Assembly (NCBI RefSeq): GCF_004010195.1
Contig: NC_057711.1
Span: 19,306,980-19,370,979, forward strand
Direction of reading: 5' to 3'
DNA from: Chiloscyllium plagiosum
Taxonomy: Eukaryota
Length of the DNA stretch: 64,000 bases
Below the pieces are notes generated by a model, which was given only the letters and a program-made list of their open reading frames with translations, did no database searches and was not told where the DNA came from. The first letter of the stretch is position 1. Each line of letters begins with the position of its first letter. Positions 317 through 62,905 of the stretch are shown here, in pieces. Position numbers and translations under genes: made by a program.

Positions 317-523
317 GCTGAAAATGTGTTGCCGGAAAAGCGCAGCAGGTCAGGCAGCATCCAAGGAGCAGGAGAATCGACGTTTCGGACATGAGCCCTT
401 CTTGAGGCTCATGCCCAAAACGTCGATTCTCCTGCTCCTTGGATGCTGCCTGACCTGCTGCACTTTTCCGGCAACACATTTTCAGCTCTGATCTCCAGCA
501 TCTGCAGTCCTCACTTTCTCCTT
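317..523 (+). mobile_element. PLE-derived palindromic insertion, family A
   Basis: Inverted arms about 317-397 and 406-486, unpaired tail to about 523. TSD ggggattttaactt at 303-316 and 524-537 duplicates the host CR1 GDFN codons. The hammerhead is damaged at the centre. Confidence 0.88.
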
Positions 524-2201
524 GGGGATTTTAACTTTCCAAACATAGACTACGTCTGCCATAGTGTTAACGGTTTAGATGGAGAAGAATTTGTTAAGTG
601 TGTACAAGAAAGTTTTCTGATTCAGTACCTAGATGTACCTACTAGAGAAGGTGCAAAATTTGACCTACTCTTGGGAAATAAGGCAGGGCAGGTGACTGAG
701 GTGTCATTGGGGGAGCACTTTGGGGCCAGCGACATAATTCTATTAGTTTTAAAATAGTGATGGAAAAGGATAGACCAGATCTAAAAGTTGAAGTTGTAAA
801 CTGGAGGAAGACCAATTTTGACGGTATTAGGCAAGAACTTTCAAAAGCTGATTGGGGGCAGATATTCGCAGGTAAAGGGACAGCTGGAAAATGGGAAGCC
901 TTCAGAAATGAGATAACGAGAGTACAGAGAAAGTATATTGCTGTTAGGGTGAAAGGAAAGGCTGGTAGGTTTAGGCAATGCTGGATGACTAAAGAAATTG
1001 AGAGCTTAGTTAAGAAAAAGAACGAAGCATATGTCAAGTATAGACAGGATAGATCGAGTGAATCCTTAGAAGAGTATAAAGACAGTAGGAGTATACTTAC
1101 GAGTGAAATTGGGGGGGAAAGGGGATATGAGATAGCTTTGGCAAATAGAATTAAGGAGAATCCAATGGGTTTTTACAAGTACATAAAGGACAAAAGGGTA
1201 ACTAGGGAGTGAATAGGGCCCCTCAAAGACCAGCAAGGCAGCCTTTGTGTGGAGCCACAGGAGATGGAGCAGATACTAAATGAGTATTTTGCATCAGTAT
1301 TTACTGTGGAAAAGGACATCGAAGATATAGAATATAGGGAAATAGATGGTGACATCTTGAAAAATGTCCATATTACAGAGGAGGAAGTGTTGGATGTCTT
1401 GAATAGCATAAAAGTGGATAAATCCCCAGGACCTGATCAGGTGTATCAGAGAACTCTGTGGGTAGCTCGAGACGTGATTTCTGGGTCTCTTAAGGAGATA
1501 TTTGTATCATCAAAAGTCACAGGTGAGGTGCCGGAAGTCTGGAAGTTGGCTAAGGTGGTGCCACTGTTTAAGAAGGGTGGTAAGGACAAGCCAGGGAACT
1601 ATAGACCAGTGAGCCTGACATTGGTGGTGGGTAAGTTGTTGGAGGGAGTCCTGAGGGACAGGAGGTACATATATTTGGAAAGGCAAGGACTGATTAGGGA
1701 CAGTCAACATGGCTTTGTATGTGGGAAATCATGTCTCACAAACTTGATTGAATTCTTTGAAGAAGCAACAAAGAGGATTGATGAGGGCAGAGTGGTAGAT
1801 GTGATCTATGTAGACTTCAGTAACGCTTTCGACAAGGTTCCCCATGGGAGACTAGTTAACAAGGTTAGATCTCATGGACTACATGGGGAACTAGCCATTT
1901 GGATACATAACTGACTCAAAGGTAGAAAACAGGGTGGTAGTTGAAGGTTGTGTTTCAAACTGGAGGCCTGTGACCAGTGGAGTGCCACAAGGATTGGTGC
2001 TGGGTCCACTAATTTTCGTCATTTATATAAATGATTTGGATGCGAGCATAAGAGGTATCATTAGTAAGTTTGCTGATGATACTAAAATTGGAGGTGTAGT
2101 GAACAGCAAAGAAGGTTACCTCAGATTACAAGGGATCTTGATCAGATGGGCCAATGGGCTAAGAAGTGGCAGATGGAGTTTAATTTAGATAAATATGAGG
2201 T

Positions 2202-2504
2202 GCTTTTCCTGCAACACATTTTCAGCATTAAATGTATTAGTCCTGCTAAGATTTGCTGGCCCATATTCCTCCAAACTCTGCCTATTCATATACCCATCCA
2301 GATGCTTGTTAAACATTGCAATTGTACTAGCCTCCACCACTTCCTCTGGCAGCTCATTTCATATACATACCACCTTCTGAGGAATTCCTGAAGAAAGGCT
2401 CATGCCCAAAACGTCGATTCTCCTGCTCCTTGGATGCTGCCTGACCTGCTGCACTTTTCCAGCAACACATTTTCAGCTCTGCATCTGCAGTCCTCACTTT
2501 CTCC
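2202..2504 (+). mobile_element. Composite PLE family A insertion with captured, inverted local CR1 DNA
   Basis: Order: PLE snippet 2202-2226, inverted target-site DNA 2226-2257, inverted copy of 3022-3147 at 2256-2381, PLE end 2382-2504 (ctgaaga..aaaacgtc, decayed hammerhead, tail cctcactttctcc). Confidence 0.85.
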
Positions 2505-3592
2505 TAATACACATAATGGTAAGGTCCTAGGGAGTGTTGCTGAAGAAAGAGACCTTAGAGTGCAGGTTCATAGCTCCTTGAAAGTGGAATCGCAGGTAGA
2601 TAGGATAGTGAAGAAGGCGTTTGGTATGCTTTCCTTTATTGGTCAGGGTACTGAGTACAGGAGTTGGGAGGTCATGTTGCGGCTGTACAGGACATTGGTT
2701 AGGCCACTGTTGGAACATTGCGTGCAATTCTGGTCTCCTTCCTATCGGAAAGATGTTGTGAAACTTGAAAGGGTCAGAAAAGATTTACAAGGATGTTGCC
2801 AAGGTTGGAGGAGTTGAGCTGCAGGGAGAGGCTGAAGAGGCTGGGGCTGTTTTCCCTGGAGCATTGGAGGCTGAGGAGTGACCTTATAGAGGTTTACAAA
2901 ATTATGAGGGGCATGGATAGGATAAAGTCTTTTCCCTGGGGTGGGGAGTCCAGAACTAGAGGGCATAGATTTAGGGTGAGAGGGGCAAGATATAAAAGCG
3001 ACCTAAGGGGCAACTTTTTAACTCAGAAGGTGGTATGTATATGAAATGAGCTGCCAGAGGAAGTGGTGGAGGCTAGTACAATTGCAATGTTTAATAAGTA
3101 TCTGGATGGGTATATGAATAGGCAGGGTTTGGAGGAATATGGGCCAGGTGTTGGCACGTAGGATTAGATTGGATTGGGATATCCAGTCGTCATGGATGAG
3201 TTGGACCGAAGTGTCTGTTTCTGTGCTATACATCTCTATGACTCTATATCTGCCTTTTCAGTTGGATGCAAAATTTGACATAATGTATTTGTAAAAATTC
3301 ATTCAAAGGTTTTGGCTTCATTGGTTGCACTTATCTCTCGATGCCTTTGAAAAACAAGGATGAGTGATCTTCTTGAATCCCTCTTGTCCATTTTGTGCTA
3401 GTCTGAAGGGAGTTGACTCAGAGACATCGAAGGAACAATGATATATTTACAAATCGGATTGGTGAGAGGTTTGAGGGGAACTTAAAGGCAGTGATATCTC
3501 GTGTATCTGCTATCCTTGTCTTTCTAAATGGCAACTGTTGTTTGGAATTTGCTGTATAAGAAGCATTGGTGAACTTCTGCAATACATCTTGT

Positions 3593-3918
3593 GGGCGGCA
3601 CGGTGGCACAGTGGTTAGCACTGCTGCCTCACAGCGCCAGAGACCCGGGTTCAATTCCCGCCTCAGGCGACTGACTGTGTGGAGTTTGCACGTTCTCCCC
3701 GTGTCTGCGTGGGTTTCCTCCGGGTGCTCCGGTTTCCTCCCACAGTCCAAAGATGTGCAGGTTAGGTGAATTGGCCATGCTAAATTGCCTGTAGTGTTAG
3801 GTAAGGGGTAAATGTAGGGGTATGGGTGGGTTGCGCTTCGGCGGGGCGGTGTGGACTTGTTGGGCCGAAGGGCCTGTTTCCACACTGTAAGTAATCTAAT
3901 CTAATCTAATCTAATTTA
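3593..3918 (+). mobile_element. Full-length young tRNA-derived SINE (HE1-like V-SINE)
   Basis: A box tggcacagtgg, B box ggttcaattcc, V-domain-like core, CR1-like 3' end, (taatc)n tail, TSD atcttgt at 3586-3592 and 3919-3925. CpGs are retained. Confidence 0.92.
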
Positions 3919-3929
3919 ATCTTGTAGAT

Positions 3930-6900: not shown

Positions 6901-7108
6901 GTGGATAAAGAGGGGAGCTGGAAAAAGCACAGGAAGTCAAGCAGCATCAGAGGAGAAAGGGCATTGACAATTCAGGTCAGAAAATTACTGATGAAAGGTT
7001 TCGATCTGAAACATCAACTCCCCTTCACTGATGCTGTTTGACCTCCTGGGCTTTTTCCATCTCCACTCTTTATCCACTCCTGACTCTCCAACATTTGCAG
7101 TTCTCACT
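6901..7108 (+). mobile_element. Older PLE family A-related palindrome
   Basis: Arms run gtggataaagag.. (6901) to ..ctctttatccac (7077), with a tail to about 7108. Core ctgatga (6988-6994)..gaaacatc (7008-7015). Possible decayed TSD ccacaaatgatgg / ccacagtacgatgg. Confidence 0.75.
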
Positions 7109-13590: not shown

Positions 13591-14047
13591 ACTCTTCATA
13601 TTCTTTAATGTGTGCATCCGTATCTTAATTCTAAATCTAAGCTGAACCTTTGTTCAGCCACTAAAGTCCATTAGACTGAACAGTGACTAAGCTCCTGTGT
13701 CTAATTTAAAATCAAGATGATATCAGTGACAACTAACACTCCAGTATTGCCTTTCTTTGTCTATAATTTCGACAATGGAAGTGATTTTTTTTGGCTATTT
13801 GATGCCAGCGCTTATTTTCTAAGGCTTCCTTAAAATGCTTCTGTCTTGTCCTTTGCAAATATGATTTTTTTTAACAAGTGAACTACTGTTTTAAAATGAC
13901 TGGTTTTCCTACATGCAAAGATTTCAGTGGTTTGGGAGCTGGTGGGTGAGGGAAATGGAGTGAGGGGCAGGAGGGTGTTCTTTTTGCCTTCAGACCATCC
14001 AAAGAAACACCCAGGACTTCAGCAAGGTCCATGACTTTCTCTACACA

Positions 14048-14984
14048 GTTAACAATCACACAACACCAGGTTATAGTCCAACAGGTTTAATTGGAAGCAC
14101 TAGCTTTTGGAACACTGCTCCTTCATCAGGCAGTTGTGGAGGACACAATTGTAAGGCACAGAATTTATAGCAAAAGTTCACAGTGTGATGTAACTGAAAT
14201 TATACATTGAAAAATACCTTGATTGTCTGTTGAGTCTTTCATTTGTTCGAATACCATGATAGTTTCACTTCTTTCATGTGAAAATGACAATTTTATTTTT
14301 TTTAAAGTTGATTCTCAGGTTAACTGTAACAATTGGTTTCAGCTAGACAATATGTTGAAGGTGTTAGTTCCCTTTGTTCTCTGTCTATGCCATGAAGTTT
14401 AGATTGAGTGTAATCTAAAAAGTGAGATCACATGGACACACACATATAAATCTAGGGGTGAACTTGCATTTGTAGAATTGTGAATGCAGATACATTCTAT
14501 TTTGTTCAAAAAGCATACAATCTGCAGGCGATCCATGCAGGCAGTCAACGTTTGTAACAATTGATAAATTCCTACTTTGGAAATAAAAACAGTCTAACTC
14601 AAGATTGGGATACAGACAGACTCTAACCTCACAACTTTAATGCATTGTCTGAGCTGAGATGTCACCTTTTTTTAAAAAACCTTGTTATCTCAAGAATGTG
14701 GTTTGAAAGAAGTTCTGGGATTTACATATTAATGAACCGAAACCTGCAACCCATTCTAAAAGATGAAAGGCTTAACAGCAATCTAGGTTTGTTCAATATA
14801 TTATTTTAGTTGCATGCCAGTGTGATCATTTGCTAAAAATTCTGTGTCTTATGATCCTGCTATCTGATGAAGTAGCAGTGCTCTGAAAGCTGATACTTCC
14901 AAATGAACCTGTTGGACTATAACATGGTGTTGTGTGATTTGTAACTTAGCCCCACACCAGTCCAACACCGGCATCTCCACATCA
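14048..14984 (+). mobile_element. Long PLE family B inverted element
   Basis: Starts gttaacaatcacacaacaccagg and ends with the complementary arm plus tail ccagtccaacaccggcatctccacatca. Decayed hammerheads at about 14097-14131 (-) and 14861-14895 (+). Confidence 0.82.
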
Positions 14985-15172
14985 TTTTCCTACTTCCCAG
15001 GGTAAATGGCACCATCTGTTTTCTGCTTCCTTACACTCACTGGATCTCCACTACTGCACCTACTTCCATCGAACAGAGGTCTCTCACTCTCACTGTCGCA
15101 TGCCACATATTGCATCACTCGTTCTCAAACCTAGCCCGCCAATGCCACACAATGAATTCTGCACAGACTCTT

Positions 15173-16115: not shown

Positions 16116-16283
16116 AGCATCTGAGGAGCAGGAGAGTTGATGTTTTGAGCATAAGCCTTTAATCAGGAATTTCTGATGAAGAGTTTATACTCGAAACGTC
16201 AACTCTCCTGCACCTCGGATGTTGTCTGACTGACTGTGCTTTCCAACACCACACTTTTCGATTCTGATCCCCAGCATCTGCTG
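16116..16283 (+). mobile_element. PLE family A-related palindrome
   Basis: Inverted arms around ggaattt (16166-16172), tail tctgatccccagcatctgc. Confidence 0.78.
16171..16202 (+). ncRNA. Minimal type-I hammerhead ribozyme motif
   Basis: tt CTGATGA a GAGT ttat ACTC GAAAC GTC aa. The core is intact, stem II has 4 bp and stem I only about 2 bp. Confidence 0.65.
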
Positions 16284-21450: not shown

Positions 21451-22748
21451 GTCAGTGCTTCTGATTCTGCAGCCATTGCATCCAACATCCTTTCTCAAAA
21501 CCTTTTTTGTGTTACTTTATCAACATCTCACAGAAATTCAGTACCCCATTCTGCTACGAATAAATGTATTCACATATGCAATACCTCATCCAATATTGCC
21601 TGCTGAACTGATACTTGGTTAACTATCATGTTTGGTCAAATTTGTCTTAATTTAAACTCTTGATATCATGGCAACCAACAAAAAATGTAATTATATTTGT
21701 GCCAGTAAGTTTTACATTTACATTTTACAGTGTTAAGTCTCATCACTTTATTTCAGCCAGAATTAATTCAGCTGAGAATTAGACTAGCTACCGTCACTGT
21801 GTCCATAGCAACAATGAACCTAATCCAATTGACAAGGGATAATTTGAAATATTAAATTTTAATTTCCTGATCAGTCAACTGAAAAATTGAGTTAATATTA
21901 AATATTTGATTATTGGACCAAATATTGTATTCGCTACTAAATACCACTCCCAACATTTTACATTCTAGTTATAATATGTTGGCAATCCTATTGTTCATCC
22001 AGTTGTCAGGATCTTTCAAGAGGTGCAATGTTTCCCAAAGAGTTTTCTTCTGCTCTTTCAAATGAGTAGATCATTAAGGAAGGAGAAGCCTGAGGATTGA
22101 TCTTAAATTCCAGCCTGGGGCCTCATTTATATCTGACAATTGAGCTGTGAATACCAACTGTTTCAGTCTTCTTGGAGTGGTTGTGTGATGAACCACCCAA
22201 TTGGTACTCTGGGTATAACTTAGGATTTTGAATGACTTTGATTTAGAACTATACTGTGAATGTCCTCCTGTCTGGGGCTGTCCACCTTCGCACCCTACAC
22301 CTGAAAGTTGTGACTGGAACTGTATAACCAAACTAATACAAACAAATCAGTTAAGTCACTCAATATCATTTTCAAACTGCTCTATAATTGCACCAGACAT
22401 TGGAATTAAACTTGATCCTGCCTACATCTTCCTCAAATCCAACATGAGAGAAAACCACAGACTTCTTTCTCACTAAAATTGAAATTAGTCTTTCAGCTAC
22501 GTCTAAACTTCTCTCCATATAATTCAGTTCACAAGTTAGTTTTTTCCCTACACCTGTGCTTTCCTGATTTGCTTTGTTATTCCACCATTAATGGCTTTGA
22601 CTTCAGTTGAGGAACTAATGGTCCAGCATTCTGGAACTTAACCTCTCCAACTTTCTATGCCACTTTTCTCCTTCAGGAAGCTTATTAAAGATACCTCTTT
22701 TACTTATCAGTCTTGGTGTCAGTTTTTGGTTGGTAATGTTAATCTGAA

Positions 22749-22863
22749 CTGAAAAATGTGTTGCTGGAAAAGCGCAGCAGGTCAGGCAGCATCCTGGGTT
22801 GCGCTTTTCCAGCAACACATTTTTCAGCTCTGATCTCCAGCATCTGCAGTCCTCACTTTCTCC
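22749..22863 (+). mobile_element. Short PLE family A palindrome lacking the ribozyme
   Basis: Perfect 14-bp TSD aatgttaatctgaa at 22735-22748 and 22864-22877. Arms ctgaaaaatgtgttgctgg / ccagcaacacatttttcag plus the 35-nt tail. Confidence 0.9.
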
Positions 22864-23084
22864 AATGTTAATCTGAAGCTTTACATATTAACAGTTTCAG
22901 ATAAAGACATTTTGTTGTCCTATATTTAACAAGCTGGTTCATCTGGATTTTGCTGTACAAATTCAACAAATTTTTCCCAATCCTCTCTCATGGTAAATTA
23001 CCAGCTAGCTGTAATGGGTCAAATTACATCACGAGTGAACATTGTTACTTTTCAAGTTGACATTGTTAGTATATTAAATAAAGC

Positions 23085-23341: not shown

Positions 23342-23420
23342 ACCTGTTGGACTATAACCTGGTGTTGTGTGATTTTTAACTTTGTACATCCCAGTCCAAC
23401 ACCGGCATCTCCAAATCATG
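23342..23420 (+). mobile_element. PLE family B 3' end fragment
   Basis: acctgttggactataacctggtgttgtgtgatttttaactttgtacatcccagtccaacaccggcatctccaaatca. Confidence 0.8.
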
Positions 23421-31605: not shown

Positions 31606-32596
31606 GTCAAAGCAGTCATTCTGACTTTCCCTTTTATATCTAACGTTTCTGTCCATGAATGGACCAAAGTTATAACAAGGTCAGGAACAGGAAAACAACT
31701 TGAGCATCAGTGAAGAGGTTGTTGTTCAGTAAGTGCACTTGATAGCACAGTCAAAAGCACCTTCATCATTTGCTGGTAGCTGAGATTGAACTAATGTGGC
31801 AGTAATTGGCTGGGTTCAATTTCTCCCTTTTTTGGGGGGACAGAACATGCCTGGATAAGTTTCCACATTTCTGGCTAGATGTCACTGTTGTAACTGTGCA
31901 GGGCCAGTTTGGCTAGGCATGTGACAGGTTCTATAGCATAGGTTTTTGGTACTATTCCCAGAATATCATCAGGGTCCATAGACGTTTCAGACTTCAGTTG
32001 TTTGATATCATGTGGAATGAATTGAATTGGTTAAAGACCAAGTACCTTGGGAGGAGGCCAAAATGTATCTTTCACTTGACAGTTTTTTCAACAAGAAAAC
32101 AATTGAAGGAGGAATGAGAAATGTGTCAATTATTGCAAATATTTCACTTTCCATCTCTGTTTTACCCATTGCGAACGATTCTGTTTTTTTCACCATGGGT
32201 TTGTGACTTTACAAAAATTGTGGCACAATACCAATCCAATTAATATTGTGGCAAGTGGTTTTGATAGGCACTGAAGTGCCACATTGTCCCCACTCCACTC
32301 ATTCATTGCACAGAATTTACAGAACAGAGCAAACCTTCTGGCTCAGTTAATCTATGTTAGCATTTCTGCTGAACATGAGACTCCTCCCATTCCTCTTCAT
32401 TTTCCATCTCCTTTTCCTTTCTTCATCACCTGGCTCTCCCTTAAATCCTTCAAAATTATTTGCCTCAATCAGTTGTTGACAGCACTTTCCCTATTCATGC
32501 CATCATACAGCTAAAAAAATTCTCCTGAAATCCTAACTGGATTTAATTCACCAGTTTATTCTTAGAAGACAGTTGGTCCATTATATGGTTAGGAAA

Positions 32597-32797
32597 TACC
32601 GGTGTTGGACTGGGGTGTACAAACTTAAAAATTACACAACACCAGGTTATAGTCCAACAGGTTTAATTGGAAGCACACTAGCTTTCGGAGCGACGCTCCT
32701 TCATTAGGATCACCTGATGAAGGAGCATCACTCCGAAAGGTAGTGTGCTTCCAATTAAACCTGTTGGACTATAATCTGGTGTTGTGTGATTTTTAAC
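32597..32797 (-). mobile_element. PLE family B palindrome inserted in a CR1 3' end
   Basis: TSD atggttaggaaa at 32585-32596 and 32798-32809. Tail on the left, with arms mirrored around about 32709. Confidence 0.9.
32711..32745 (+). ncRNA. Minimal hammerhead ribozyme motif, family B
   Basis: cac CTGATGA a GGAG catca CTCC GAAA gg TA gtg. The opposite arm gives the family form gaaagCTAgtg but has ctaatga in the core. Confidence 0.6.
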
Positions 32798-33026
32798 ATG
32801 GTTAGGAAAGGTTTCGAGGGTATAGACAAAATGCAGGCAAATCGGACTACTTCAATTGAGAAAATCTAGTTGTTATGAGTTGGACTGAAGGGTCTGTTTC
32901 CGTACTGTATGACTCTATGACTCTATAACACAAGTAGATTTTTTTTTCTACATGTAGAACTTTGCAGTCACCATGAGTTCATATAATTTTAACAATCCCA
33001 AACTCTCTTTCCATTCACAAAAGTTT

Positions 33027-49810: not shown

Positions 49811-50368
49811 CTGTGAATCAACACCAAGCAAGCTGAGTTATATCAGAGTCCATTGCAGCAGAATTGGTGCAAAGTAAGCATCAACAAAGCTTACTTTTTT
49901 CCAGCAGATATGTTATCCTATTAGGTTTACAATGACATGGTTTTACATTTTTATGTATTAACTGCATACCATTTTACAATTCCAAATGGGCCAAAATCAT
50001 AATGTAATATCAGTACCAAATGTTCCAATGTACTTTTAAAATCCCTTTGCCAGTTATTTGAACAAACCTTTTGACCTATTCATTTAAATGGGCAAAAACC
50101 TAAAACGCAAATTGTTTACAAAATATTAATGAATATATTAATAATAAAAGTATATTGTGAGTTTAACATTAATATGATTTGAGCTTTCATGTTAAACTTG
50201 CTGAGTAACTGAAATAAAGATCCACCTAATTCTGGGGCCAAGAAAACCTTTCTAAAGAGGGACATGTAGGTCTCCTAGGCAGTTTTTAAGTTGACTACCT
50301 GAATTTGTATGCTCAGATAGCACTCTTTAAACACTTAAACGTTCAACTACTGAGAGTAAATTTGTGTT

Positions 50369-50408
50369 GCAGACATTTCGTCCCCTGTCTAGGTGACATC
50401 CTCAGTGC
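50369..50408 (-). ncRNA. Minimal hammerhead ribozyme motif (mirror copy)
   Basis: Reverse complement reads gca CTGAGGA t GTCACCT agac AGGGGAC GAAA t GTC tgc, with one C>T in the stem III palindrome. Confidence 0.7.
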
Positions 50409-50445
50409 TTGGGAGCCTCCTGTGAGCCTCCTTGGGAGCCTCCAA

Positions 50446-50485
50446 GCACTGAGGATGTCACCCAGACAGGGGACGAAACGTCTGC
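50446..50485 (+). ncRNA. Intact minimal type-I hammerhead ribozyme motif
   Basis: gca CTGAGGA t GTCACC cagaca GGGGAC GAAAC GTC tgc. Stem I is gca/tgc, stem II has 5 of 6 pairs, ACGT is palindromic, and cleavage is predicted after 50482. Confidence 0.8.
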
Positions 50486-51259
50486 AACACAAATTCCCAG
50501 CTCGGCGAACAGAACCACAACAACGAGCAACCCAGCTACAAATCTTCTCACAAACTTTGAACTGAGAGTAAACTCTGTCGATGGCTGTATCCAAATCAAT
50601 TGTAGAACCCATGTTTCAGCAGGTTATTCAGAGTTGGAGCCAAACAGGAATTAAATCTTTCAAAGTAGAATGGAAAGGCCATGTAGGTGGAGGAGGTAAA
50701 TGCTTGGTACGAGGCCTGGGGACTAATCTAGAACAAAGGGATGGTGGGTCAATTATAGTTACTGATATTGATCTACATTTTCTTCCAACAACCCTAGGGT
50801 CTCCACGGTGTACTGTTCCTTTTGCCAGCTTTTTATATTTCCCATTCTTCTTGCCTCTTGCCCTTGAGTTTAATGCCTTTCTGCTGCCAATTGAGACCCT
50901 CTCAATTATGTTATAACAGGGAGGGCAGATGATCTGGGCAGCCCCAGAAAGCTCCTGGATGAGGGTGTTTTTGTTGTCAGACACCCAATGCCAGATCAGT
51001 AGGAAAAGGGGGGTCCCAGTGAAATCCATATCCTTGCTCTTGCTGCTCATCCACGCCAGCCTCCTGTGATCCTCAAACTACCTTTACTCCCTTTTGACCT
51101 GGGATCCATCAGTGATCTTGTCTTCTGCTGGTGCAGAGTCATAGATTCATGGAGGTCTGCAGCAAACCATTGTGCCTGCACCTTGTGATTGAGGAAAGAT
51201 CTTTGTTGAAGCCAAAGCCTGGGACTCAAACAACTTCAATTATAATGACAGGTTGTGTC

Positions 51260-51640: not shown

Positions 51641-51983
51641 GAATTGAATTATTTATGATCATGTGAATTCAATATAAAATACAGTGAAAAGTGTGTACTA
51701 TCGTCAGACATAGGCGCCATTCATATTAAAAGAAAATAAAACATAAAGAAAGATAACTTAAAGAGACCCCCACTCCCACCACAGTGCCTTACAGCTATTC
51801 CATTGGGAGCACTGGGTAAAGGAATTATTTCTTGTGTGTGATCCTTCATTTATGTATTACTGCAATCTTTCGGTATTATACTATTGCCATTTCATATAAT
51901 CCAGTAAAGTGGTGTATGACCATTTTCGGATGGTTCTAGGAACTGACCATTTTATACAGTATAGAGGTGTCAATGTTAAATGA

Positions 51984-52391
51984 TGTTAAAAATCACTCAA
52001 AACCAGGTCATAGTCCAACAGGTTTATTTGGAAATACAAGCATTTGGTTGTAGCTAGTGGGGCAGATGCATAGGACAGTGAATTTATAAGTGAAAGATCA
52101 AAGTATCATATAACTGATGCGATGTATTGGACAAATGTATATGGCTGTTAAGTGGTGTGATTTTTAACTTTGTCCACCCTACAAGGCTTTAACAGCCATC
52201 TAGGTTTGTCTAATACATTGCATCAGTTGTATGTTACTTTGATCTGTGTCCTGTGTATCCTGCACCACCTGACACCTGACAAAGGAGCAGTGCTCTGAAA
52301 GTTTGCATTTACAAATAAACCTGTTGTCTATAACCTGGTGTGGTGTGATTTTTAACTTTGTCCACCCCAGTCTAACACCAGCACCTCCACA
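51984..52391 (+). mobile_element. PLE family B inverted element
   Basis: TSD tcaatgttaaatga at 51970-51983 and 52392-52405. Inverted arms, decayed hammerhead cacctgacaaaggagcagtgctctgaaagtt at about 52273-52303, and the family B tail. Confidence 0.85.
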
Positions 52392-55300
52392 TCAATGTTA
52401 AATGAATCCATGCCAGACAGTGAAGTTCACCGAACCTTGCTGTGATAGTATGTACATTTGTAGCGATATCCGGTTAGAAATATAGGTTTTATTGAGAAAC
52501 ACTTAGCTAATTAGATATAAAAATGATGCATAAGTTTAAAGTTGACCATTAAAGATTTTATCTCAGCTAGCAGAAATTGGTTTGGAATTACAATCACTTG
52601 GATATTCCTGATAGGAGATATGGAGATGACATGCAAATGCTATTAACTAAGTTGATGATTTGTACTCAGCACAGACAAAGCAAAAGGTGTAAACAATAAT
52701 TTGTTCACAATAAAGAAAACCAGCAGGAGACAAGGCACCATCTCACTTTGTTATAAAAACAAGATGTTAACTACAGAAGAAATACTGAACTCATAAAACC
52801 TAAAGCATCCAACTGATAACAGATATCGTGAAAAGATTCTTATCAAATGAATACCATGAAATAAAAGGATAAAACAACACATGCCAAAAATAGAAAGCAA
52901 TACAAATTTAAAAATGAAACATCCTTTTACTCATGAATCTTGAGCAACAACTTTTCAGATTCATTAAATTAGGGAAATAATAAAGAAAACTTCATGTAGG
53001 AATTGTTAGACTTCAAAAACAAATTGACTTGATAAAAGCTCACAGCGTTTCAAGGAAACCTCACCAAATAATTGAGGGATAAGGTTAAATAATATTATAG
53101 TTTCTCATGAAAGTAGAGGGTTAATACCTCTATTTGCAGGAGGGATCTGAGCAATATAAAAATAAAACCCTTTCACTGAATTTTTTGGAATCCTCAGATA
53201 ATACTTTCCAAAAGATTTTGTTTCCCTGTGGCAGAACAAATCTTATTTGCTCGGAGCATTAATATTTTACTTTAAATGTTGATGATTTTTATATTCTTAG
53301 ATAATCTTAGATGTTATTGAATAGTTTTAAGTAAAATCAAATATGGTACCTTAGATTTGATACGATATCTTTTGATAGTTTTGACTTCATTGTTTATTTA
53401 ACCACTTAAACAGCATTACTTCTTTTATTAATTTCTATTAATATGTGCAACATTAAAAATTTATCTTTTTTTTTTACAAGGAAAGAAATTCTATTCTCAT
53501 TTACTCCTTAAATAGAGAAGTATATATTCTGGAAGGAGAAATCCCAAATCCTTAAAGTATGTGGGGCATCTATAATATCGCTAATGCTTATTAAAATTAT
53601 ACTGGCTACTTTGAGGAAGGGAATATTTTTAGGTAATTTCTTCTCTATGGAATGGTTATGTAAAGTCTAAGACCCAAGACTAAGCAACTGCCTTAAACTT
53701 AGCAACCAGAAGTTAACAAGCAAACTCTCCTGATCAAAGTTAGTTCTAAATAAGATTTAAAATCAGTAAATGATTTCATATTTCAAGAATGTAGTATTGC
53801 ATATCACTACCTCCAATGACAAACACCATAGTTTCATAGCAGTCCCCTTTAAACGTGCTCAAAATACCTTGTTAATATACTATTTTTCTTTAATCTTAGT
53901 GGTACAATTAACATTGCATTAACAACTAAGTTCTTATTTGAAAATTAAAACGACCATTTCAAGGTAAACACCCTTGTGTGTTGTCATGAAAGGAGTTGCC
54001 CATGGCACATGAGGTGCTCAAAAATTGCATTCAAAGCGGATTAATCATTACCTTCCAGAAATTTCCATTCTTAGGCCATTTGAAAAACATTTTTAAAGGA
54101 ACATTTTTAACTCAGATCATTTATGATTAAGTTCTCCTCTATTTGTGAAGGACTCATTATGTTTGTTCTAATGTGAGACAAACAGATTCTGTGTGACCAG
54201 TTGTATTAAGCAGCTTTCCTTCTACCAGTTACATAAATATAACTTCACACTTGACAATATTTGTGGTCTGACCTTTTACCATTATACTCTGCACTAATCA
54301 ACTGAGTGACTCCTGCTGATACATCTGAATAGCTTCAGCTGAACACTTAGCTGATTTACAAAATTTTATGTGTATGGGCTGTGTGCAGTATATCTCCCGA
54401 CCATTACAAATGCCCTCTGATTCCAAAACAGTGCAGCAGTTTTATCACAGCTGAAGTATTTGACAGCTTTAACAAATTAGTAGTACCAATACTCAAGACT
54501 TAGAATTAACCTCTGCTCACACAGCAATCAGTGTGCAGTTTCCAACAGATTCTAAATTTAGAACAGAACAATAAAAGAAAAAAATGTGACTGAGCCAACC
54601 TGTATTTAATTTTCTTTGGAAAGCATTTCTCTTGCTTGATTTTTGAATGCATGTGTGAAATATAATTAAAGGATTTCACATCTGTATTAATGCTTTTGGT
54701 AACTATTTTGGACTGAACATAATAGAGAAGCAGTTTATTTTAGTACCCGAATGTGGGATATGTTCTTCAGTCCACAAAAAAAAAAGCTTTTACATTAAAA
54801 GGCATTAAAATAAATCCTTCTTGCTGTTACATTTGTTTCTGGCAAATCTTAAATATTTATATAATCAGAGAATTCCATTCTCTGTCACAATTTTTTGGTT
54901 TCATTACAAACATTCGAATATGGAATAAGATTAGGTCATTCGATCCTTTGCCATTCAATATGGCTGGCCTGATTTTAACCTAAAATGTAGAGTCCTGCGC
55001 ATCCCCATTCCTCTTTTATCCCCTGGGTAATCAATCATCTGTCCATCTCTGTCTTAAAATATTTAAAAGTTCTGCATCGATTCGAGGAAGGGAATCCCAA
55101 AGACCTACAGCACTCTGAAAGAATAAAAATGCTTCCTCTTCTCTGTTTTAAATGAGCATCCTTTGTTATAAAACTATGATCATCTACTAGTCAAATCCCT
55201 CAGGATCTTATACATTTCAATTAAGTCCCCTCTGACTCTGCTAAATGCTAGAGGTTACAGGCAAGTCCATCAAATCTTTTTACATCAGGCAATCTAATCA

Positions 55301-56287
55301 TTCCAGGTACTAGTCCAGAAAACCATCTCTGAATTTTTTCCATTGTATTAGTATTCTTCTGTGACCAATAAAGTGACCAATATTATATACTGTATTCTGG
55401 ATGGGGTCTCAGTAATGCTCTATATAACTATAGCATCAACTCCCCACTCGTACATTCAATTCCCCTCAACATTTTATGAGCTTCCCCAATTACTTGCTGT
55501 ACCTGCATACTAACACTCTGTAGTTCATGCACTGGGATTTTCAGATCTCTATGCATCCTGGAGCTCTACAACCTCTTACCATTTAAATAATATGCATAGT
55601 TTTTATGCTTTAGGCCAAAATGGAAATTTTTCAACATTTTCCACATCGTACTCCTTTTGACAGACCTTTGTCCATTAAAACTAGCCTATTAATATCCCTT
55701 TGTATGCTCCTTATGACTTCTACACATCTCACTTTCCTAATTATCTTTATGTCATCATCAAATTATTTACCATACTTTCTATTACTTCATCCAAATTATA
55801 AAGAGTTGAGGTTACAGAATTGACCCTTGTGGCACACCAAACTTGACATCCTGCCAGACTGAAAAAGACCCAATTATTCCTACTCTCTACTTCCTGTTGG
55901 TCAGCCAATCTTCTATCCATTTCAATATGTTACTCCTATACCAGGAGATTTTATTTTCCCAAATGACCTTTGATGTGCCACCTTCTCAAATGCCTCTGGA
56001 AAGCTAAATATAGTACATTTATTGGTTCCCCTTTTTCTGCAACACAAATTACTTCTTCAACGAGCTCAAATGAATTATCTAAGCTTTTTTTCACACATCT
56101 TGAACTTATCCAAATGTCCTCATCACTTCTTTAATAATTGCTTCTAACATTTTCCCGATGATAGGTGTTAGGCTAACTTGCCTAATGTTTTCTATTTTCT
56201 ACTCCCCTCTTTATTTGAATAAAGGAATTAACTATTTTCCAATCGAAAGGAACATAACCTGAATCTAATGAACTTTGAAAGGTTAAA

Positions 56288-56473
56288 GCAGAAAGTGAGG
56301 ACTGCAGATGCTGGAGATCAGAGCTGAAAATGTGTTGCTGGAAAAGCGCAGCAGGTCAGGCAGCATCCAAGGAACAGGAGAATCAAGAAGAAGGGCTTAT
56401 GCCCGAAACGTCGATTCTCCTGTTCCTTGGATGCTGCCTGACCTGCTGCACTTTTCCAGCAACACATTTTCAG
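56288..56473 (-). mobile_element. PLE family A palindrome
   Basis: 15-bp TSD ctttgaaaggttaaa at 56273-56287 and 56474-56488. Tail on the left. Partial hammerhead gaaga a GGGC ttat GCCC GAAAC GTC lacks the first CT. Confidence 0.9.
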
Positions 56474-57354
56474 CTTTGAAAGGTTAAACCCAACACATTA
56501 AATATTTCACTGGTTACTTCTTTTAAAACATTAGGATAAAATCCATCAGCATCTGGGGACTTGTTAACTTGCTCAGCCAACAACTCACTCTGTACTACTT
56601 TTTTGGTAATTGCAATTTTCTTGAGTTCCTTCTTCCCATTCAATTCATGATTCACAGCTATTTACAGGATGCTGCTTGTATTGTTTTTAGTGAAGATCGA
56701 TGCAAAATATCTGTTCAACTTGTCCGGCATCTCTTTATCCTCTATTCCCCAGGTTTATTTTCTCTCGGACCAGCACTTACTTTGTTAACACTTCACTTTT
56801 TAAAAATATTTGAAGGCACTTTTCTGATCTGTTTTGGCTCTTTTAGTCTAGTTCATCCCTCCATATTAATGTATTAGTAATGCTTTTCTGTGTTTTTTTA
56901 TATCCTATCCTATCTTCTGACCTCTCACGTATCTTTGCAGAATTATATCTAAATTCTTTGAGTTTAATACTTTGAGTTTAATACTTTGAGTTTTCTAATG
57001 CTAACCACTGAAGGCCGGTTTGACCCTTAGAAATGTTCATATTGGTTGGAATGCATGTTTTCTGTGCTTTCTGGAATAAGCCCAGTACATGTTTGACTCT
57101 GCACCTCTATTGATCTATCTCTTAACCTAAATTGCCAGTTCACTTTTACTAACTCTGTTTTCATGCCCTCATAAATGCCCTTATTTAAGTTCAAACTAGT
57201 AGCCCTGACTTCACGGGGCTTAATCTCCCTTAATTTGTATGTAAACTTCAATCATATTATGGTCACTACTACCGAAGAGTGTTTTCATGATGAGGTCAGT
57301 AATTAATCGTATTATTAGTCAAAACCAGGTTTAGTTTAACCTATTCTCTGGTTG

Positions 57355-57545
57355 GTGTCACTATCAACATGCCACTCCCACCTCTGATCTCTCTGCCTAC
57401 AAATTCTGTGCCTGTGTGCTTCTCTTCACTTCACCTGACAAAGGAGCAGCGCTCGAAAGCTTGTGATTTAAAATAAACCTGTTGGCCTATAACCTGATGT
57501 CATGTGACTTCTGACCTTCTCCAACACTGGCACCTCCACATCATG
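57355..57545 (+). mobile_element. PLE family B-related 3' end, older
   Basis: cacctgacaaaggagcagcgctcgaaagcttgtg..aaacctgttggcctataacctg..ccaacactggcacctccacatca. Confidence 0.75.
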
Positions 57546-58153: not shown

Positions 58154-58369
58154 ATGAGTTTTGAGATTTGTAGCTCAGGTTGAGGTTCTGGATGTAAGTT
58201 TGCTCACTGAGCTGGAAGGTTCATTTTCAGATGTTGCGTTACCCTACTAGGTTACATCATCAGTGACCCTCCATTGCTTCACCGGAGGTTCACTGATGAT
58301 GTAACCGAGTATGGTGACGAAACATCTGAAAATGAACTTTGCAGCTCAGTGAGCAAACTTACATCCAGA
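58154..58369 (-). mobile_element. PLE family C-related palindrome
   Basis: Arms ttctggatgtaagtttgctcactgagctg.. (58186) and ..cagctcagtgagcaaacttacatccagaa (58370). The left tail gagatttgtagctc matches the 50361 tail. Imperfect TSD aattccttc / aattctttc. Confidence 0.82.
58289..58330 (+). ncRNA. Minimal hammerhead ribozyme motif
   Basis: ttca CTGATGA t GTAACC gagtat GGTGAC GAAAC ATC tgaa. Stem I has 4 bp and the core is intact; ACGT has decayed to ACAT. Confidence 0.7.
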
Positions 58370-58714
58370 AATTCTTTCCTCTGTTGCATTTTCCTATCCT
58401 TTGATTCAGTATAAATTTCCAAATTTCAACCTTGCCCCCCAATATTTATTTTAAGTGCAGCAAGAAATCTTTTAAAATATAGCTCGCAATAAAAGTAGTC
58501 GTAAAAGTGCTCATGATACCATTGCTACATTGTAGCATGTGAACTGAGGAGGTAAACATTTCAGACTTTATCTTAAAGGGTACCACTTGAAGCATGACAC
58601 ACTGAAGAAAGCCTGCTATTATTTGTAACTGAGTAGCTTGATGTTAATCCATGGAGTCCTTCCTGATCTAAGAATGATGAAGGAGTTAACCAAATGTCCA
58701 CCCCACAGGAAAAA

Positions 58715-58876
58715 TGATTTGGAGATGTCGGTGTTGGACTGGGGTGTACAAAGTTAAAATCACACAACACCAGGTTATAGTCCAGCAGGTTTAATTGGAA
58801 GCATTAGCAGCGCTCCGAAAGCTAGTGCTTCCAATTAAACCTGTTGGACTATAACCTGGTGTTGTGTGATTTTTAA
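58715..58876 (-). mobile_element. PLE family B palindrome, ribozyme truncated
   Basis: TSD ccacagga(a/g)aaa at 58703-58714 and 58877-58888 (11/12). The centre keeps only gcgctccGAAAGCTAgtg. Confidence 0.88.
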
Positions 58877-60066
58877 CCACAGGAGAAAGATGGTTTGAGG
58901 CATTTGCTCAGATTTTCCAACATCCTCTCATCATATATTCTCAATATCATTGCAAAGGCAATGGTGTTGAGAGATTTGCTGAGGGCATGATGTCCCTTGT
59001 GTGTCAAGACAACCAGCAATGCATCTTCAAATCTCTCAAGTAAATTCTATCATCAAAATCTCACCTACTCCAAAATTACAGAAGGCAAGATGCATTCCTT
59101 GAAGTGGATGCATTGCAAAAGGCCTAGGCAGCTGTCTTTTGCAAAACGGAAAATATATTTTCTTTTGTTCGAAAAACCCCAATTATCTGAATTCGCCAAC
59201 TATTCCAGAACAGAGCTGAAAGCAGTAGCTTTGGTATTTGACATCATGTAGTTACACTTATTTTGAAATTTATTTAGCAAGAAATTCACCCTTGAAACAA
59301 GTCATAATCTATTAGAAATGATCTGTCATAAACTGACAATAAGTGCACCAGCATGTTGAAGTGCTTACTTGACAAGAAACAAGCATATGACTTTGAAGTC
59401 AGATACAAGCAACGAGAACATTCAACACACTGAACATCCCAAACAAAGACCAAGATATTCCTCTTGATCTTCATGTTGATTCTCTTGAATATGAAGTTGA
59501 TCTGTTACATTATCAATTGCTAAAACAGTAATTAGTTACTGCTTAAGATGGGGACTGCACAAGTTGCGAGAGACTATTATCCATGGATGGCCGAACAACA
59601 CTGGGGAGGAACTTGAGAGCATTCATTCATTTTGCCCAAACTAATATATCATTGTACGTTATTTTCAAGGTAAAACAAGTTTGAATACTGTAAATATTAA
59701 GCCAGTATATTATGAACATATTACACAGGAAGGTCACATGTACACTGAATGCAGGAAAGTAAGCACAAGTTTCTGACTACTGGAGGGATGAATCGGGGTC
59801 TTCAATGATGTGTAATTGCATCTGAGATATGGAAAGTGTATTAACACTAGCAATGGAAGGAGTTTTGACTTTCACTCTTAATCCATCCACTCCCTGGACA
59901 AAAGTAACAACAAATATATTTAACAGAGCATAAGAAAGCTTTCATCCTTGTGATAGATTACTGCCCCAAATTTCTCATTGTTCAATGGTTTTTCAACATG
60001 ACAAGTGTAACCATTGATACATTAACTGCTAATCTTAGTTTTTTCAGCATACTGGACTGGATAATT

Positions 60067-60980
60067 TCATAGAGTCATAGAGTTTTACAACATAGAAAGA
60101 GCACCGTCAGTCCATTGTTTCCATGTCAGTTTTCCAGCACCTTTCCACTCTAGTCTCATTTTCCAGCCCTTGGTCTATAGCCTTGTATATCACCTAAACA
60201 ATTAAATGTTGCAGTGGCTTGTGTCACCACCATCCTTTCAGGCAGTGAATCCCAGATACCCACTACCCTCTGGGTGAAAAGAAATCTTTGTTAAATCCCC
60301 TCTAAACACCCTGCCCTTTATAGTAAATCTGTCCCTCTGGTTATTGATCCATTTACTAAGTGTTTCTTCTTATGTGTCCTAATTATGTTCCTTATAATTT
60401 CGTATGCCTCAATCAAGTTTAGGGAAAAAAGGTGGCCTATTGGTATTGTCACTGAGATCACAATTTGGCAGTTTGAGGGACATGTGTCCAAATCCCAACA
60501 TGGCAGATGATGAAATTTCAATTCAATCAAAAAAAGATCTGAGTGAGAAAGTTGGCCTAATGGTCACCAAGTAACCGCTGTCACTCATTGCAAAGCCCCA
60601 TCTAGTTCACTAATGTCCATCTGGGAAAGAAATCTGTCATCCTTATCGAATCTGGCCTACATGTAACTCCAGATCCACAGCAATGTTGCTGACTCTTAAC
60701 ATCTGGGCAAATATGGAGAGGAAATAAATGTTGACCTCACCCTAAAAAGAATAAAAGTAAAGAACCCTACACCATGCCTCAGCTTTCTCTGGATGAAGGA
60801 AAACTACTCCTGCCTATTGATTTTCTCTTCATAGGCTAGGCAATATCCTGATGAATCACTATTTACATTCTCTAATGCAACCACAACCTTCATGTAGGAT
60901 GACAACCAGAACTGCACATAGTATTCCAGGTGTGGCTAAACATCTTAAACAGCTGCACCATAACATTTCAAACCTCAAGT
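60067..60980 (-). mobile_element. Old CR1 3' part interrupted by an ancient SINE (+, about 60430-60740)
   Basis: Tail catagagtcatagag. SINE core cccatctagttcactaatgtcc..tggcctacatgtaactccagatccacagcaatg. Confidence 0.7.
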
Positions 60981-62013
60981 ACTCAGTGGGGAGAGACCCA
61001 CGCCACTTTGCCATCTCATTATCCTCTCTCAAACGGTCTTCCATAATGTATGATATTTCCTGTCAAATCAGTGATGATCATTGACGGCAACAGGATAGGT
61101 GGATAAGTTGGTTAAAAAGGCTTATGAACATTTGCATTTATTAGTTGATGTATTGAATACAAGAACAGTGACATTATGTGGAAGCTGTATATTTCATTTG
61201 TGGGGCCATAGTTGGAGTACTCTATGCAGTTTTGGATGCCACATTATAGGAAGAATTTTACTGGAGAGAAGATTCATCAGAATATCACTTGGCCTGGAGC
61301 ATTTCAGCTATAAAGAGACACTAGGTAGGTTCGATAAAGGTAAAGGACTATTGCATGGAGGGGAGAAAAGTAAAATTTTCCATCGACCTACTGAGATAGA
61401 AGGGAGGTGCGGCCATTAACAATGTAGTTAAAAGGCACTTATCAACAGTCAACTCCCCCAAAAATCTGGGTATTTCAAAGTCTAAGGCAAGTGGCCTGGC
61501 AACATTTTTGCAACCTTCTGTACCACTTGTCCCTCATGCAAAAATTAGCGAAAGAAAACAATTTCGACCACCAGTCCATCAGGCAGTAGTTAGCATGTAG
61601 CTTTCTCGAGACCCTGTGGGTAAATGAAATGGTTGATCCTGCCGGGTGGTTCCCTGAGCAGACTGTCAAATGTATTTGGCAGAATGCCTCATCACCAGAA
61701 CTTTCTAACAAGTACCAAGATGTAGTTTGGCTGGTGACAAGAAGGGCACCACCTGTGAGATCCTTCATGTATGCCCAGCAGCTGATGGAGGGAGGGATGG
61801 AGACTGTCACAAATCTCCTTCTGGAAGGTGTCTTCGCAAAGGAACTCTGGAGAGAGTTGCTGTGGTTTTGTCGAGGTTCATCCCAAGTGGCTCCATGACA
61901 TTGGTCTCTGTCCTCTACAGGGAGAAAGTGAGGTCTGCAGATGCTGGAGATCAAAGTTGAAACTTTATTGCTGGAACAGCACAGCAGGTCAGGCAGCATC
62001 CAGGGAACAGGAG

Positions 62014-62049
62014 ATTCGACGTTTCGGGCACAGGCCCTTCTTCAGGAAT
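62014..62049 (-). ncRNA. Intact minimal type-I hammerhead ribozyme motif
   Basis: Reverse complement reads attc CTGAAGA a GGGC ctgt GCCC GAAAC GTC gaat, with 4-bp stem I, 4-bp stem II and palindromic ACGT. Confidence 0.82.
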
Positions 62050-62264
62050 GAGCAGAGAGTGTTCAGCAGGAGAAGATAAAAGGTAGGGAGGAGGGACTTG
62101 GAGGAGGGGAGTTGGAAATGTCTTCTTCTTGACCTCTCCGCCTCCATCCTACTCCGACCTATCACCCTCACCTTGACCTCTTTCCACCTATCACATTTCC
62201 AACGCCCCTCCTCCAAGTCCCTCCTCCCTACCTTTTATCTTCTCCTGCTGAACACTCTCTGCTC

Positions 62265-62300
62265 ATTCCTGAAGAAGGGCCTGTGCCCGAAAAGTCGAAT
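62265..62300 (+). ncRNA. Hammerhead ribozyme motif (mirror copy, one substitution)
   Basis: attc CTGAAGA a GGGC ctgt GCCC GAAA a GTC gaat. Confidence 0.68.
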
Positions 62301-62905
62301 CTCCTGTTCCCTGGATGCTGCCTGACCTGCTGTGCTGTTCCAGCAATAAAGTTTCAACTCTGTCCTCTACAGTCTGTTACCTATGACACACATCGAGACA
62401 ACATCGACTGAGACTGGATGACCATCAACTCGGTGAAAGATGATCTTTTGTGTGCCCGAAACTTGTTGGCCTCAAATGAGTGCTGCAGAATGGCACATGC
62501 CCAAGTCTACGATTACATACTGAGGGAAGCACTAAAGTTTGGAGCAGCTGCTGACAAGGTCAGCGCCTCAGGTCTTTCTGCCAAAGTCCAATGGGGGTCT
62601 GTTCAGTTATTAGACCTTATTGGTACATCAAATATAGGTAAATATAACCTTGTATAAGTAAGCAATGCTTTGCAACTTCAGGGAATGCTAAATTTCAATG
62701 TTTGCTTATTATTCATGTGCAAAGACTATACAGAAATGCTTCAGTAACTGAAGATGTACATCAATATTTTTAATGAATAAAATATATTTTTGTAATAAGA
62801 AAAATTACATTCCCCTCTGGTAAAATAGAGCAAACTTCACTTTCTGCTCTGATGAGACTCTCTGAAGGTCCATGAATAATCTGTGTTTCTTTTCAAATGA
62901 CTTAG

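Follow-up and report, generated by a model that had tools for sequence, protein, structure and literature searches.

Short hammerhead-bearing palindromes in the Chiloscyllium plagiosum genome are pieces of four protein-coding Penelope-like retroelements

A 64,000-nucleotide stretch of the Chiloscyllium plagiosum genome (contig NC_057711.1, positions 19,306,980 to 19,370,979; hereafter the window) contains many short palindromic insertions with hammerhead ribozyme sequence, which raises the question of whether these are independent noncoding elements or parts of coding ones. A sequence-only reading had assigned them to three families of retrozyme-like elements mobilized in trans by Penelope-like element (PLE) proteins. 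The short insertions are instead pieces of four autonomous, protein-coding PLEs. How such pieces arise bears on a wider problem, since the origin of the pseudo-LTRs (pLTRs), the inverted arms and the tail and the role of the hammerhead are named as open questions in two earlier articles (PMC8557442; PMC7761336).

Insertions in the 64-kb window

Family sequence is present at all 15 coordinates listed earlier for about 14 insertions. The design ascribed to them, with arms placed head to head, a tail on one side and direct repeats at the flanks, was recovered, except that the insertions at 2202, 23342, and 57355 are not intact palindromes. Flanking repeats of 12 to 17 nt occur at 8 of the 15 sites. 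The supposed third family consists of two, C1 and C2, which are 72% alike over 65 nt, giving four families in all. Hammerhead cores do exist in each family as claimed, but a full core with a valid cleavage triplet is retained only at 6901, 16116, 32597, 50361, 58154, and 61921; the complete core has been lost at the other nine sites, and 22749, 23342, and 58715 are without any hammerhead core. The features are as follows (arm positions are relative to the ribozyme cut, set to 0; strand is given where assigned).

317..521, plus strand: family A palindrome; short inverted arm -29..+62, long sense arm -19..+97; damaged core; TSD 301-316 / 522-537
2202..2504, plus strand: rearranged family A copy; inverted remnant of 31 nt, then neighbouring DNA in inverted orientation (about 150 bp), then sense arm 2384-2504 (-32..+97); damaged core
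6901..7108, plus strand: palindrome of an old A-like subfamily; single near-complete core at 6988
14042..14985: family B two-armed insertion; inverted short-end arm to -332, sense long-end arm to about -204
16116..16281, plus strand: palindrome of an old A-like subfamily; intact core at 16173
22749..22863, plus strand: family A palindrome without hammerhead; arms start at +12 and +34; TSD 22735-22748 / 22864-22877
23342..23419, plus strand: family B single long-end arm without hammerhead, starting at +16
32597..32797: family B palindrome; arms from -30 to the long end and -34..+55; core at 32714; TSD 32585-32596 / 32798-32809
50363..50560, plus strand: family C1 (Poseidon-like by motif only) insertion; arms from -54 and -49; two cores; first ORF codons included; TSD 50349-50362 / 50561-50574
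51984..52391: family B complex insertion; short and long ends; TSD 51970-51983 / 52392-52405
56290..56473: family A palindrome without a full core, because the long arm stops at the cut (0) and the short arm starts at -26; TSD 56273-56289 / 56474-56490
57355..57545, plus strand: older family B single arm; mutated core
58154..58370: family C2 (Poseidon-like by motif only) palindrome; core at 58293
58715..58876: family B palindrome without core; arms from -4 and -19; TSD 58703-58714 / 58877-58888
61921..62357: two-armed family A insertion whose arms extend into the upstream repeat (to -104 and -177); TSD 61906-61920 / 62358-62372
62014..62049, minus strand: intact minimal type I hammerhead; 4-bp stem I, 4-bp stem II, palindromic tetramer replacing helix III
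62265..62300, plus strand: second hammerhead of the 61921..62357 insertion; tetramer mutated

The 3' end of the 61921..62357 insertion is 96 to 100% identical to the ends of several RT-coding copies. Its intact hammerhead is predicted to cut between 62018 and 62017, and 62049 would be the family A transcription start at this insertion.

Genome-wide abundance and hammerhead content

The density of about one insertion per 5 kb estimated from the window applies genome-wide, with one per ~5.1 kb (226 in 1,158,024 non-N bases) in 120 arbitrary 10-kb pieces, all taken from the 32 largest contigs. PLE-derived repeats make up about 5% of the sampled DNA, and they often adjoin assembly gaps. A strict minimal-hammerhead descriptor gave 57 matches in 0.97 Mb (0 in each of 10 shuffles) and 4 in the window (0 in each of 20 shuffles), and a looser one gave 74 (0 to 1 in shuffles). 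Intact minimal hammerheads number about 60 per Mb and have the features of minimal PLE hammerheads, namely, a conserved core, stem II, a short stem I, and a palindromic tetramer. A search with Rfam models returned no hammerhead match at E ≤ 1, only miRNA-like hairpin matches below their gathering scores. The reported covariation of the stems amounts to conservation among four Penelope lineages, as published (PMC4209133), although one of the pairs given, GTCACC/GGGGAC, holds an A-G mismatch; in the more frequent A subtype, stem I includes a U-U mismatch. Folding of single strands did not favour the hammerhead structure energetically, with the A monomer folding no better than shuffles (z, +1.0 and -0.4), which is expected because the motif is of the dimer type.

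Coding parents

In a search for parent elements, as had been proposed, longer copies of every family were found to run on into RT or GIY-YIG coding sequence, and this genome is rich in RT+GIY-YIG elements (38,066 and 22,642 first-look candidates). RT lies 5' to the family end, in the same sense, at 22 of the 30 A loci and at 24 of the 30 C1 loci, the query's own locus being included in each. Family A has one 632-amino-acid stop-free frame with RVT_1 (E = 2e-7) and GIY-YIG (E = 3e-4, just under the cutoff), and C1 has RT and GIY-YIG motifs in frames. For B (5 of 30 loci) and C2 (the copies read), only RT-thumb/GIY-YIG remnants were seen upstream. Both the single ORF with RT followed by GIY-YIG that characterizes EN+ PLEs and the pLTR with a 30- to 40-bp tail and an inverted 5' copy are present, the latter seen as two 3' end peaks per family and as arm pairing. 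The A ORF begins at +135, that is, 135 nt past the cut, and the leader-to-ORF junction was recovered for A; the ORF start of B was not recovered. No complete pLTR-ORF-pLTR copy was found among the examined loci, many of which have N gaps, and deleted partial tandems were seen. L214, a candidate full-length C1 copy, proved to be two separate insertions. A DNA search with the C-rich upstream repeat had no matches, probably because of filtering, and no match came from a sequence search of the PDB. The sequence-only reading was right about the link to Penelope, about the minimal hammerheads and the inverted pLTR, and about the very high number of copies.

Animal retrozymes derive from pLTRs (bioRxiv 2026.07.22.740005), intact hammerheads are frequent here, and two same-strand hammerheads lie about 205 nt apart at L333, L335, and L336, so that nonautonomous RNAs that are transcribed, cleave themselves, and are reinserted by PLE proteins have to be considered. 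However, in other copies this sequence runs directly into coding sequence, element boundaries are unfixed, nine window sites are without a full core, arm ends have no peak at the cut, and only 2 doubtful tandem neighbours occur among the 226 insertions in 1.16 Mb, which makes a retrozyme-like origin extremely improbable. Head-to-tail tandems with complete hammerheads were not found, rare two-unit partial tandems appearing only in a targeted search, and no fixed noncoding self-propagating unit was seen, as centres and lengths vary and the sequence joins coding parents. Separate noncoding elements mobilized in trans are thus unsupported; what the insertions carry is terminal-repeat or leader sequence of autonomous elements with RT and GIY-YIG.

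Arm pairing and 3' ends

Before counting, duplicates of the window or query locus (L001, L081, L111, L141, L153, L171, and L201; L331 from the junction count), arms that ran into N or the edge of a locus, and arms with less than 80 to 85% identity were dropped. The 3' ends fall at two fixed sites 30 to 40 nt apart, one per arm, with peaks at about +62-67 and +97 in A, +55-60 and +92-94 in B, and +40-42 and +77-79 in C1. A long end is paired with a short end in 53 of 55 unbiased pairs and 115 of 123 total pairs. In 63 of these 115 pairs, the 5' end of the short-end arm lies beyond that of the long-end arm by 5 nt or more, which indicates that neither arm was copied from the other in those pairs. 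Exact direct repeats flank 62 of 97 pairs, with a mode of 14 to 16 nt (control, 0 of 97). The palindrome centres vary from copy to copy, which indicates that the hairpin is made anew at each insertion and not inherited. The long/short pairing, together with mutually noncontained arms, points to twin priming.

Self-priming (fold-back) on one cDNA or an antisense template, which has been proposed for rotifer Penelopes (PMC3846280), might also produce the inverted arm. It would fit junction overlaps of 1 to 4 nt in 36 of 97 pairs and longer ones in 15 of 97, and in 52 of 115 pairs the long arm could include the whole of the short one. It would also fit the sharing of subfamily variants by both arms (29 of 29, versus 14.5 permuted), for which gene conversion or a single donor locus could be alternative sources. 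As a general route, fold-back is refuted by the pairs in which each arm has sequence that the other lacks, and the short end lies on a long RT-coding body with the tail on a small inverted arm at L183, L190, L202, L211, L212, L218, L221, and L226; it is accordingly very unlikely.

5' ends, promoter signals, and extra G

Among family A arms, 39 of 71 end in -40..-26 and none in -99..-41, and among family B arms, 25 of 59 end in -45..-26 and none in -299..-60; BLAST-called ends at -36..-40 are partly overextension. Of the short young-A arms with an intact core, 30 of 51 end at -31/-32, a count made on young copies only, older subfamilies having partly inflated the -32 peak of all copies. The B pile-up is broader (-33..-39). 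The 21 of 71 A arms that end downstream of -26 indicate that run-off is not the sole route. No 5' pile-up was found for C1 (16 unbiased arms; 72 cores), and the C2 copies are too few for 5' end analysis. The A stop site matches the initiator motif YYANWYY and has a T/A-rich run 30 nt upstream, and TATAAA lies 30 nt upstream of the B pile-up; short A and B copies start downstream of a TATA or TATA-like box and are likely to be without an upstream promoter of their own.

G precedes A at -32 in 15 of 17 nonparental junctions (P = 7e-8 at p = 0.25), versus 3 of 22 at -31, although for at least 9 of the 15 G's the acceptor (partner arm, ORF, or TSD) is a possible source and only two, in L338, are clearly untemplated. 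Such a G is expected if the cap is copied, and in full-length L1 insertions capping is marked by an additional G (PMC11702581). In B, an extra G was found by hand at 4 of 7 junctions, which is not significant. Seven of 11 head-to-tail fusions start their terminal unit at -32..-36. Two other sources of the 5' ends were rejected: ribozyme cleavage, with no peak at 0 and 3 of 71 A arms in 0..+4, and a splice acceptor at the wall, with no AG before -32 (A) or -35/-37 (B).

The insertions might alternatively be ordinary 5'-truncated copies, arising when RT begins within the 3' pLTR of a long RNA but falls off early, stalling at the folded hammerhead, with twin priming still making the palindrome. 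Truncation at the 5' end is typical of PLEs (PMC8557442), all families combine fixed 3' ends with 5' ends ragged over hundreds of bases, C1 fits well, and the pile-up matches the 5' strand of stem I. However, the 3' partner of stem I would already be copied once RT reaches -32, the A monomer has no folding advantage over shuffles, and a stall does not predict the G at -33, the distance of the stop site from initiator and TATA signals, or the lack of ends between -41 and -99, which leaves truncation an unlikely explanation.

Proposed mechanism

Most A and B insertions are more plausibly run-off ("strong-stop-like") cDNAs of a capped mRNA leader, probably twin primed, joined head to head. The model would cover these two families, as C1 has no 5' pile-up and C2 too few copies. 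In this run-off model, a GIY-YIG/RT dimer would nick both strands about 15 nt apart, and each nick would prime at one of two internal start sites on the same uncleaved RNA. These sites would be only ~90 to 130 nt from the cap, so that both cDNAs would usually run off the RNA 5' end or stop earlier. Run-off would add a cap-templated base, and end joining of the cDNA pair would leave a promoterless palindrome in which the hammerhead is a passenger. An occasional RT jump from the cap to another RNA position would yield partial tandems, and long copies may result when such a jump lands in the 3' repeat, or when a read-through RNA is primed within its 3' repeat.

It is conceivable, though offered only tentatively, that Neptune-type Penelopes replicate like a target-primed retrovirus in which the leader of one RNA is read twice, from two start sites, a jump from the cap to the 3' repeat builds the pLTR, and the hammerhead serves as an RNA-end clasp. 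Dimerizing through its palindromic tetramer, the hammerhead would then draw the two RNA ends together, rather than act mainly as scissors, and the ~65 nt from the B start site to its poly(A) site would be essentially the hammerhead itself. If so, the hundreds of thousands of palindromes would be a fossil record of failed jumps. In LTR elements, a short minus-strand strong-stop cDNA is likewise made from the RNA 5' end before a jump, the primer being a tRNA and not target DNA.

RNA reads

The raw-read runs listed are poly(A)-selected single-cell libraries, and the species of run X19 may differ from that of the genome. If the two are the same, family B RNA is polyadenylated just past its hammerhead: in run X19, poly(A) occurs at +29/+32 (339 and 416 reads), ahead of the two start sites; these reads may be host transcripts using inserted copies. 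B read depth in run X19 does not fall at the ribozyme cut. No pile-up of molecule starts or ends was seen in the A or B reads, and no poly(A) site was listed for A, whose reads had a strand bias that was not taken as informative.

Comparison with known systems

The inverted pLTR and 30- to 40-bp tail of EN+ PLEs are described in PMC8557442, PMC3846280, and PMC2377424, and the layout of inverted pLTR, one-sided tail, and minimal hammerhead is already published; what is added here is mechanistic, namely, the proposed twin priming and leader run-off and the wall at -31/-32. The elements studied here resemble EN+ PLEs in RT with a C-terminal GIY-YIG, an inverted truncated 5' copy, a one-ended tail, TSD, and a pLTR promoter. 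They differ in consisting mostly of leader-length arms (~7e5 by extrapolation) and in the sharp 5' wall and G excess, neither of which was found described in the literature searched. The CxxxxCxxC linker of Neptune/Nematis occurs also in A and B and is absent from C1 and C2, whose Poseidon-like assignment is from motifs only.

The Anolis Poseidon element PAc nicks and extends both strands in vitro and starts at two internal sites on uncleaved RNA (PMC11167929). Its two RT start sites flank the tail, as here, and its ATG lies at the start of stem II, as does the C1 ORF ATG (PMC11167929). In the main text of that article, the sites are not tied to inverted arms and no strand difference in start site was observed, whereas one site per end is used almost always here. 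The present genome thus holds several hundred thousand natural reaction products with base-level ends and yields specific predictions for the existing in vitro system: a start at position -32, copying of the cap, a single start site for each strand, and jumps from the cap.

L1 twin priming (PMC11702581) resembles the present case in that the second RT is primed by the other target end and an extra G occurs at the capped 5' end; L1 arms, unlike those here, copy adjacent nonoverlapping parts and form no palindrome. Non-LTR retrozymes (PMC7761336; bioRxiv 2026.07.22.740005) are pLTR-derived and noncoding with a type I hammerhead, like the insertions here, but form head-to-tail tandems with circular RNAs, whereas the present insertions are head to head, vary in length, and in most cases do not carry two ribozymes on one strand. 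In metazoan PLEs, minimal type I hammerheads number ~4,000 in coelacanth and ~9,000 in Xenopus (PMC4209133), versus ~2e5 extrapolated here with different descriptors. The present result is also a caution that, in genomes of this kind, tallies of dispersed hammerheads consist mostly of dead products of insertion.

Abundance of hammerhead insertions

Family sequence was present at 15/15 of the sites listed by the sequence-only reading, and the density that it proposed, about one insertion per 5 kb, was reproduced in 120 arbitrary 10-kb genome pieces. These contained 226 insertions (138 of family A, 59 of B, and 29 of C), or one per 5.1 kb, a count in which the unpaired arms of one long insertion were possibly counted twice and which old copies escape. 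Extrapolation of this sample to the 3.56-Gb genome gives approximately 6.9 × 10^5 insertions, and in the first 100 pieces, family sequence accounts for about 5% of the DNA. A strict minimal-hammerhead descriptor retrieved 4 motifs from the window and 57 from 0.97 Mb of arbitrary genome pieces; none of the 20 window shuffles and none of the 10 genome shuffles gave a hit. On a looser reading, the full core is kept at 6 of the 15 listed sites; 3 have no core whatever. Randomly sampled loci (L285:2856; L275, minus strand, 8195; L276:9495; L235:3259) also hold hammerheads of additional families, more diverged and differing in stem II, an indication that the genome contains more Penelope-like element (PLE) lineages than families A to C. 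Much of the window is filled by CR1-like LINE and tRNA-like SINE repeats, and within window 237-1914 the insertion at 317 breaks a LINE-like reading frame at GDFN, which we take to be its endonuclease motif.

Parent elements

The genomic copies have fixed, common 3' ends and ragged 5' ends, and their upstream side continues into coding sequence. The search for parents encoding a reverse transcriptase (RT) and GIY-YIG endonuclease bore out the suggested PLE origin, with family sequence contiguous with coding sequence upstream. The family end lies downstream of RT, in sense, in 22/30 loci for A and 24/30 for C1. One family A copy retains a 632-aa frame holding RT and GIY-YIG, and families B and C2 reach upstream to GIY-YIG and RT-thumb remnants. 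A protein of a bamboo shark record is 81% identical to the C1 query over one third of its length, which makes a cartilaginous fish the likely host. The insertions are real but of a class already known: inverted pseudo-LTRs (pLTRs), one-sided tails, target site duplications (TSDs), and minimal hammerheads have all been described, the last also as dispersed motifs and as pairs on opposite strands (PMC4209133, PMC8557442, PMC3846280, PMC2377424). Retrozymes are described as tandem and derived from the pLTR (bioRxiv 2026.07.22.740005; PMC7761336); the retrozyme-like reading is unsupported here, since the copies run into RT/GIY-YIG coding sequence.

A Cys-rich linker, a motif described in PMC8557442, is present in A and B and absent from C1 and C2; judged by this motif alone, A and B would be Neptune-like and C1 and C2 Poseidon-like. 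In C1, the upstream ORF terminates within hammerhead loop II and a new ATG begins at stem II, the same placement as in PAc, the Anolis Poseidon element studied in vitro (PMC11167929). Numbered from the predicted ribozyme cut (+1 being the first base after it), the family A ORF starts at +135, reached by reading on beyond the tail, which indicates that hammerhead and tail serve as the mRNA 5' leader as well as the 3' repeat in A. The family B 3' UTR, upstream of the hammerhead, is a CA-rich stretch of 400 bp that resembles a microsatellite and differs between copies (loci L082 and L094). The long copies L171-L230 are strongly mosaic, with internal deletions, inversions, and local repeats, suggesting that this RT often switches templates.

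Origin of the palindromes

Each family has two alternative 3' ends, long and short, spaced 30-40 nt. Head-to-head pairs combine one long and one short end in 53 of 55 unbiased cases (115 of 123 in total), and no tail-to-tail neighbors were found among the unpaired arms of the sampled insertions. Partner arms of family A carry the same variant at four sites in 29/29, 27/29, 24/28, and 27/28 pairs, versus 14.5, 18.6, 13.2, and 17.8 under permutation; the test was weaker in B, with 13/15, 6/7, and, at a CpG position, 0/5. Of 97 pairs, 62 lie between exact direct repeats at least 8 nt long (mode, 14-16), versus 0/97 in a swapped-flank control. In the simplest reading, one RNA would be copied twice, each of the two nicked target strands priming from a separate start site. 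For PAc, nicking and extension on both strands are reported, and its two start sites bracket the tail (PMC11167929). Twin priming is well supported as the origin of the palindromes.

Fold-back copying of a single cDNA would also give inverted arms. Among the 115 pairs, the short-end arm reaches further 5' in 63, the long-end arm in 31, and the two lie within 4 nt in 21; fold-back cannot yield the 63. Self-priming on an antisense template, to which inverted junctions are attributed in PMC3846280, is contradicted as a general route by the arm containment test. Searches of the openly accessible literature turned up no paper that explains PLE insertion by twin priming, by run-off at the cap, or by RT jumping from the cap. 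Between the arms of the insertion at 2202 lies a 126-bp, 98% inverted copy of neighboring DNA (window 2256-2381 and 3022-3147), possibly captured during integration.

5' ends and head-to-tail fusions

The 5' ends of 71 unbiased young A arms form a wall, with 39 in -40..-26 and 0 in -99..-41; another 11 extend past -100, and 21 stop downstream of -26. Those of 59 B arms fall at -45..-26 in 25 cases, -59..-46 in 1, -299..-60 in 0, and beyond in 5. Base-level walking on short arms of young A copies that retain the whole core placed 30 of 51 ends at -31/-32. Judged against the initiator and TATA consensus motifs, A(-32) is the middle base of an initiator-like heptamer, and a T/A-rich run precedes it by 30 nt; in B, a TATAAA box precedes the pile-up by 30 nt. 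At junctions lacking the parental C, a G precedes A(-32) in 15/17, compared with 3/22 for position -31. At least 9 of these 15 G's could have been supplied by the acceptor, which is still compatible with pairing to a cap-templated C, and the two in locus L338 are untemplated. In full-length L1 insertions, an extra G is treated as a capping mark (PMC11702581). A arm ends are not peaked at the cut (3/71 in 0..+4), indicating a mostly uncleaved template.

Among 13 family A loci selected for having sequence past the tail, the terminal unit is fused head to tail in 11, and 7 of these fusions begin at -32..-36, the pattern expected if RT jumps on reaching the RNA 5' end. Cap run-off with jumps is moderately supported in A and weaker in B; the sampled C1 arms and cores show no wall, so the run-off scheme is limited to A and B and has no support in C. 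In loci L333, L335, and L336 (~1370-1710, element orientation), two hammerheads on the same strand, ~205 nt apart, lie in short partial tandems that RT would have built by jumping at the start site; the arrangement is formally like a retrozyme dimer and may illustrate how retrozymes arise. Some A copies abut the TSD directly at ~+171 or +221 (L344 ~1370-1630; L331/L004), indicating that RT can also initiate far downstream of both main sites.

Polyadenylation of family B RNA

Family B poly(A) falls at +29 in 339 and at +32 in 416 of 2,587 aligned reads of X19, a single-cell poly(A) run of which about 2% was read and whose species may differ from that of the genome. ATTAAA or AATAAA occurs at ~+12 in 47/53 B copies, with a GU-rich tract beyond the poly(A) site; the aligned reads reveal no transcription start and list no family A poly(A) site. 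Both B RT start sites (+55, +94) lie beyond the poly(A) site, so such RNA would be primed solely in its 5' leader. A working B poly(A) signal is seen at L271:7289-7349, and hundreds of thousands of copies could provide 3' ends for host transcripts.
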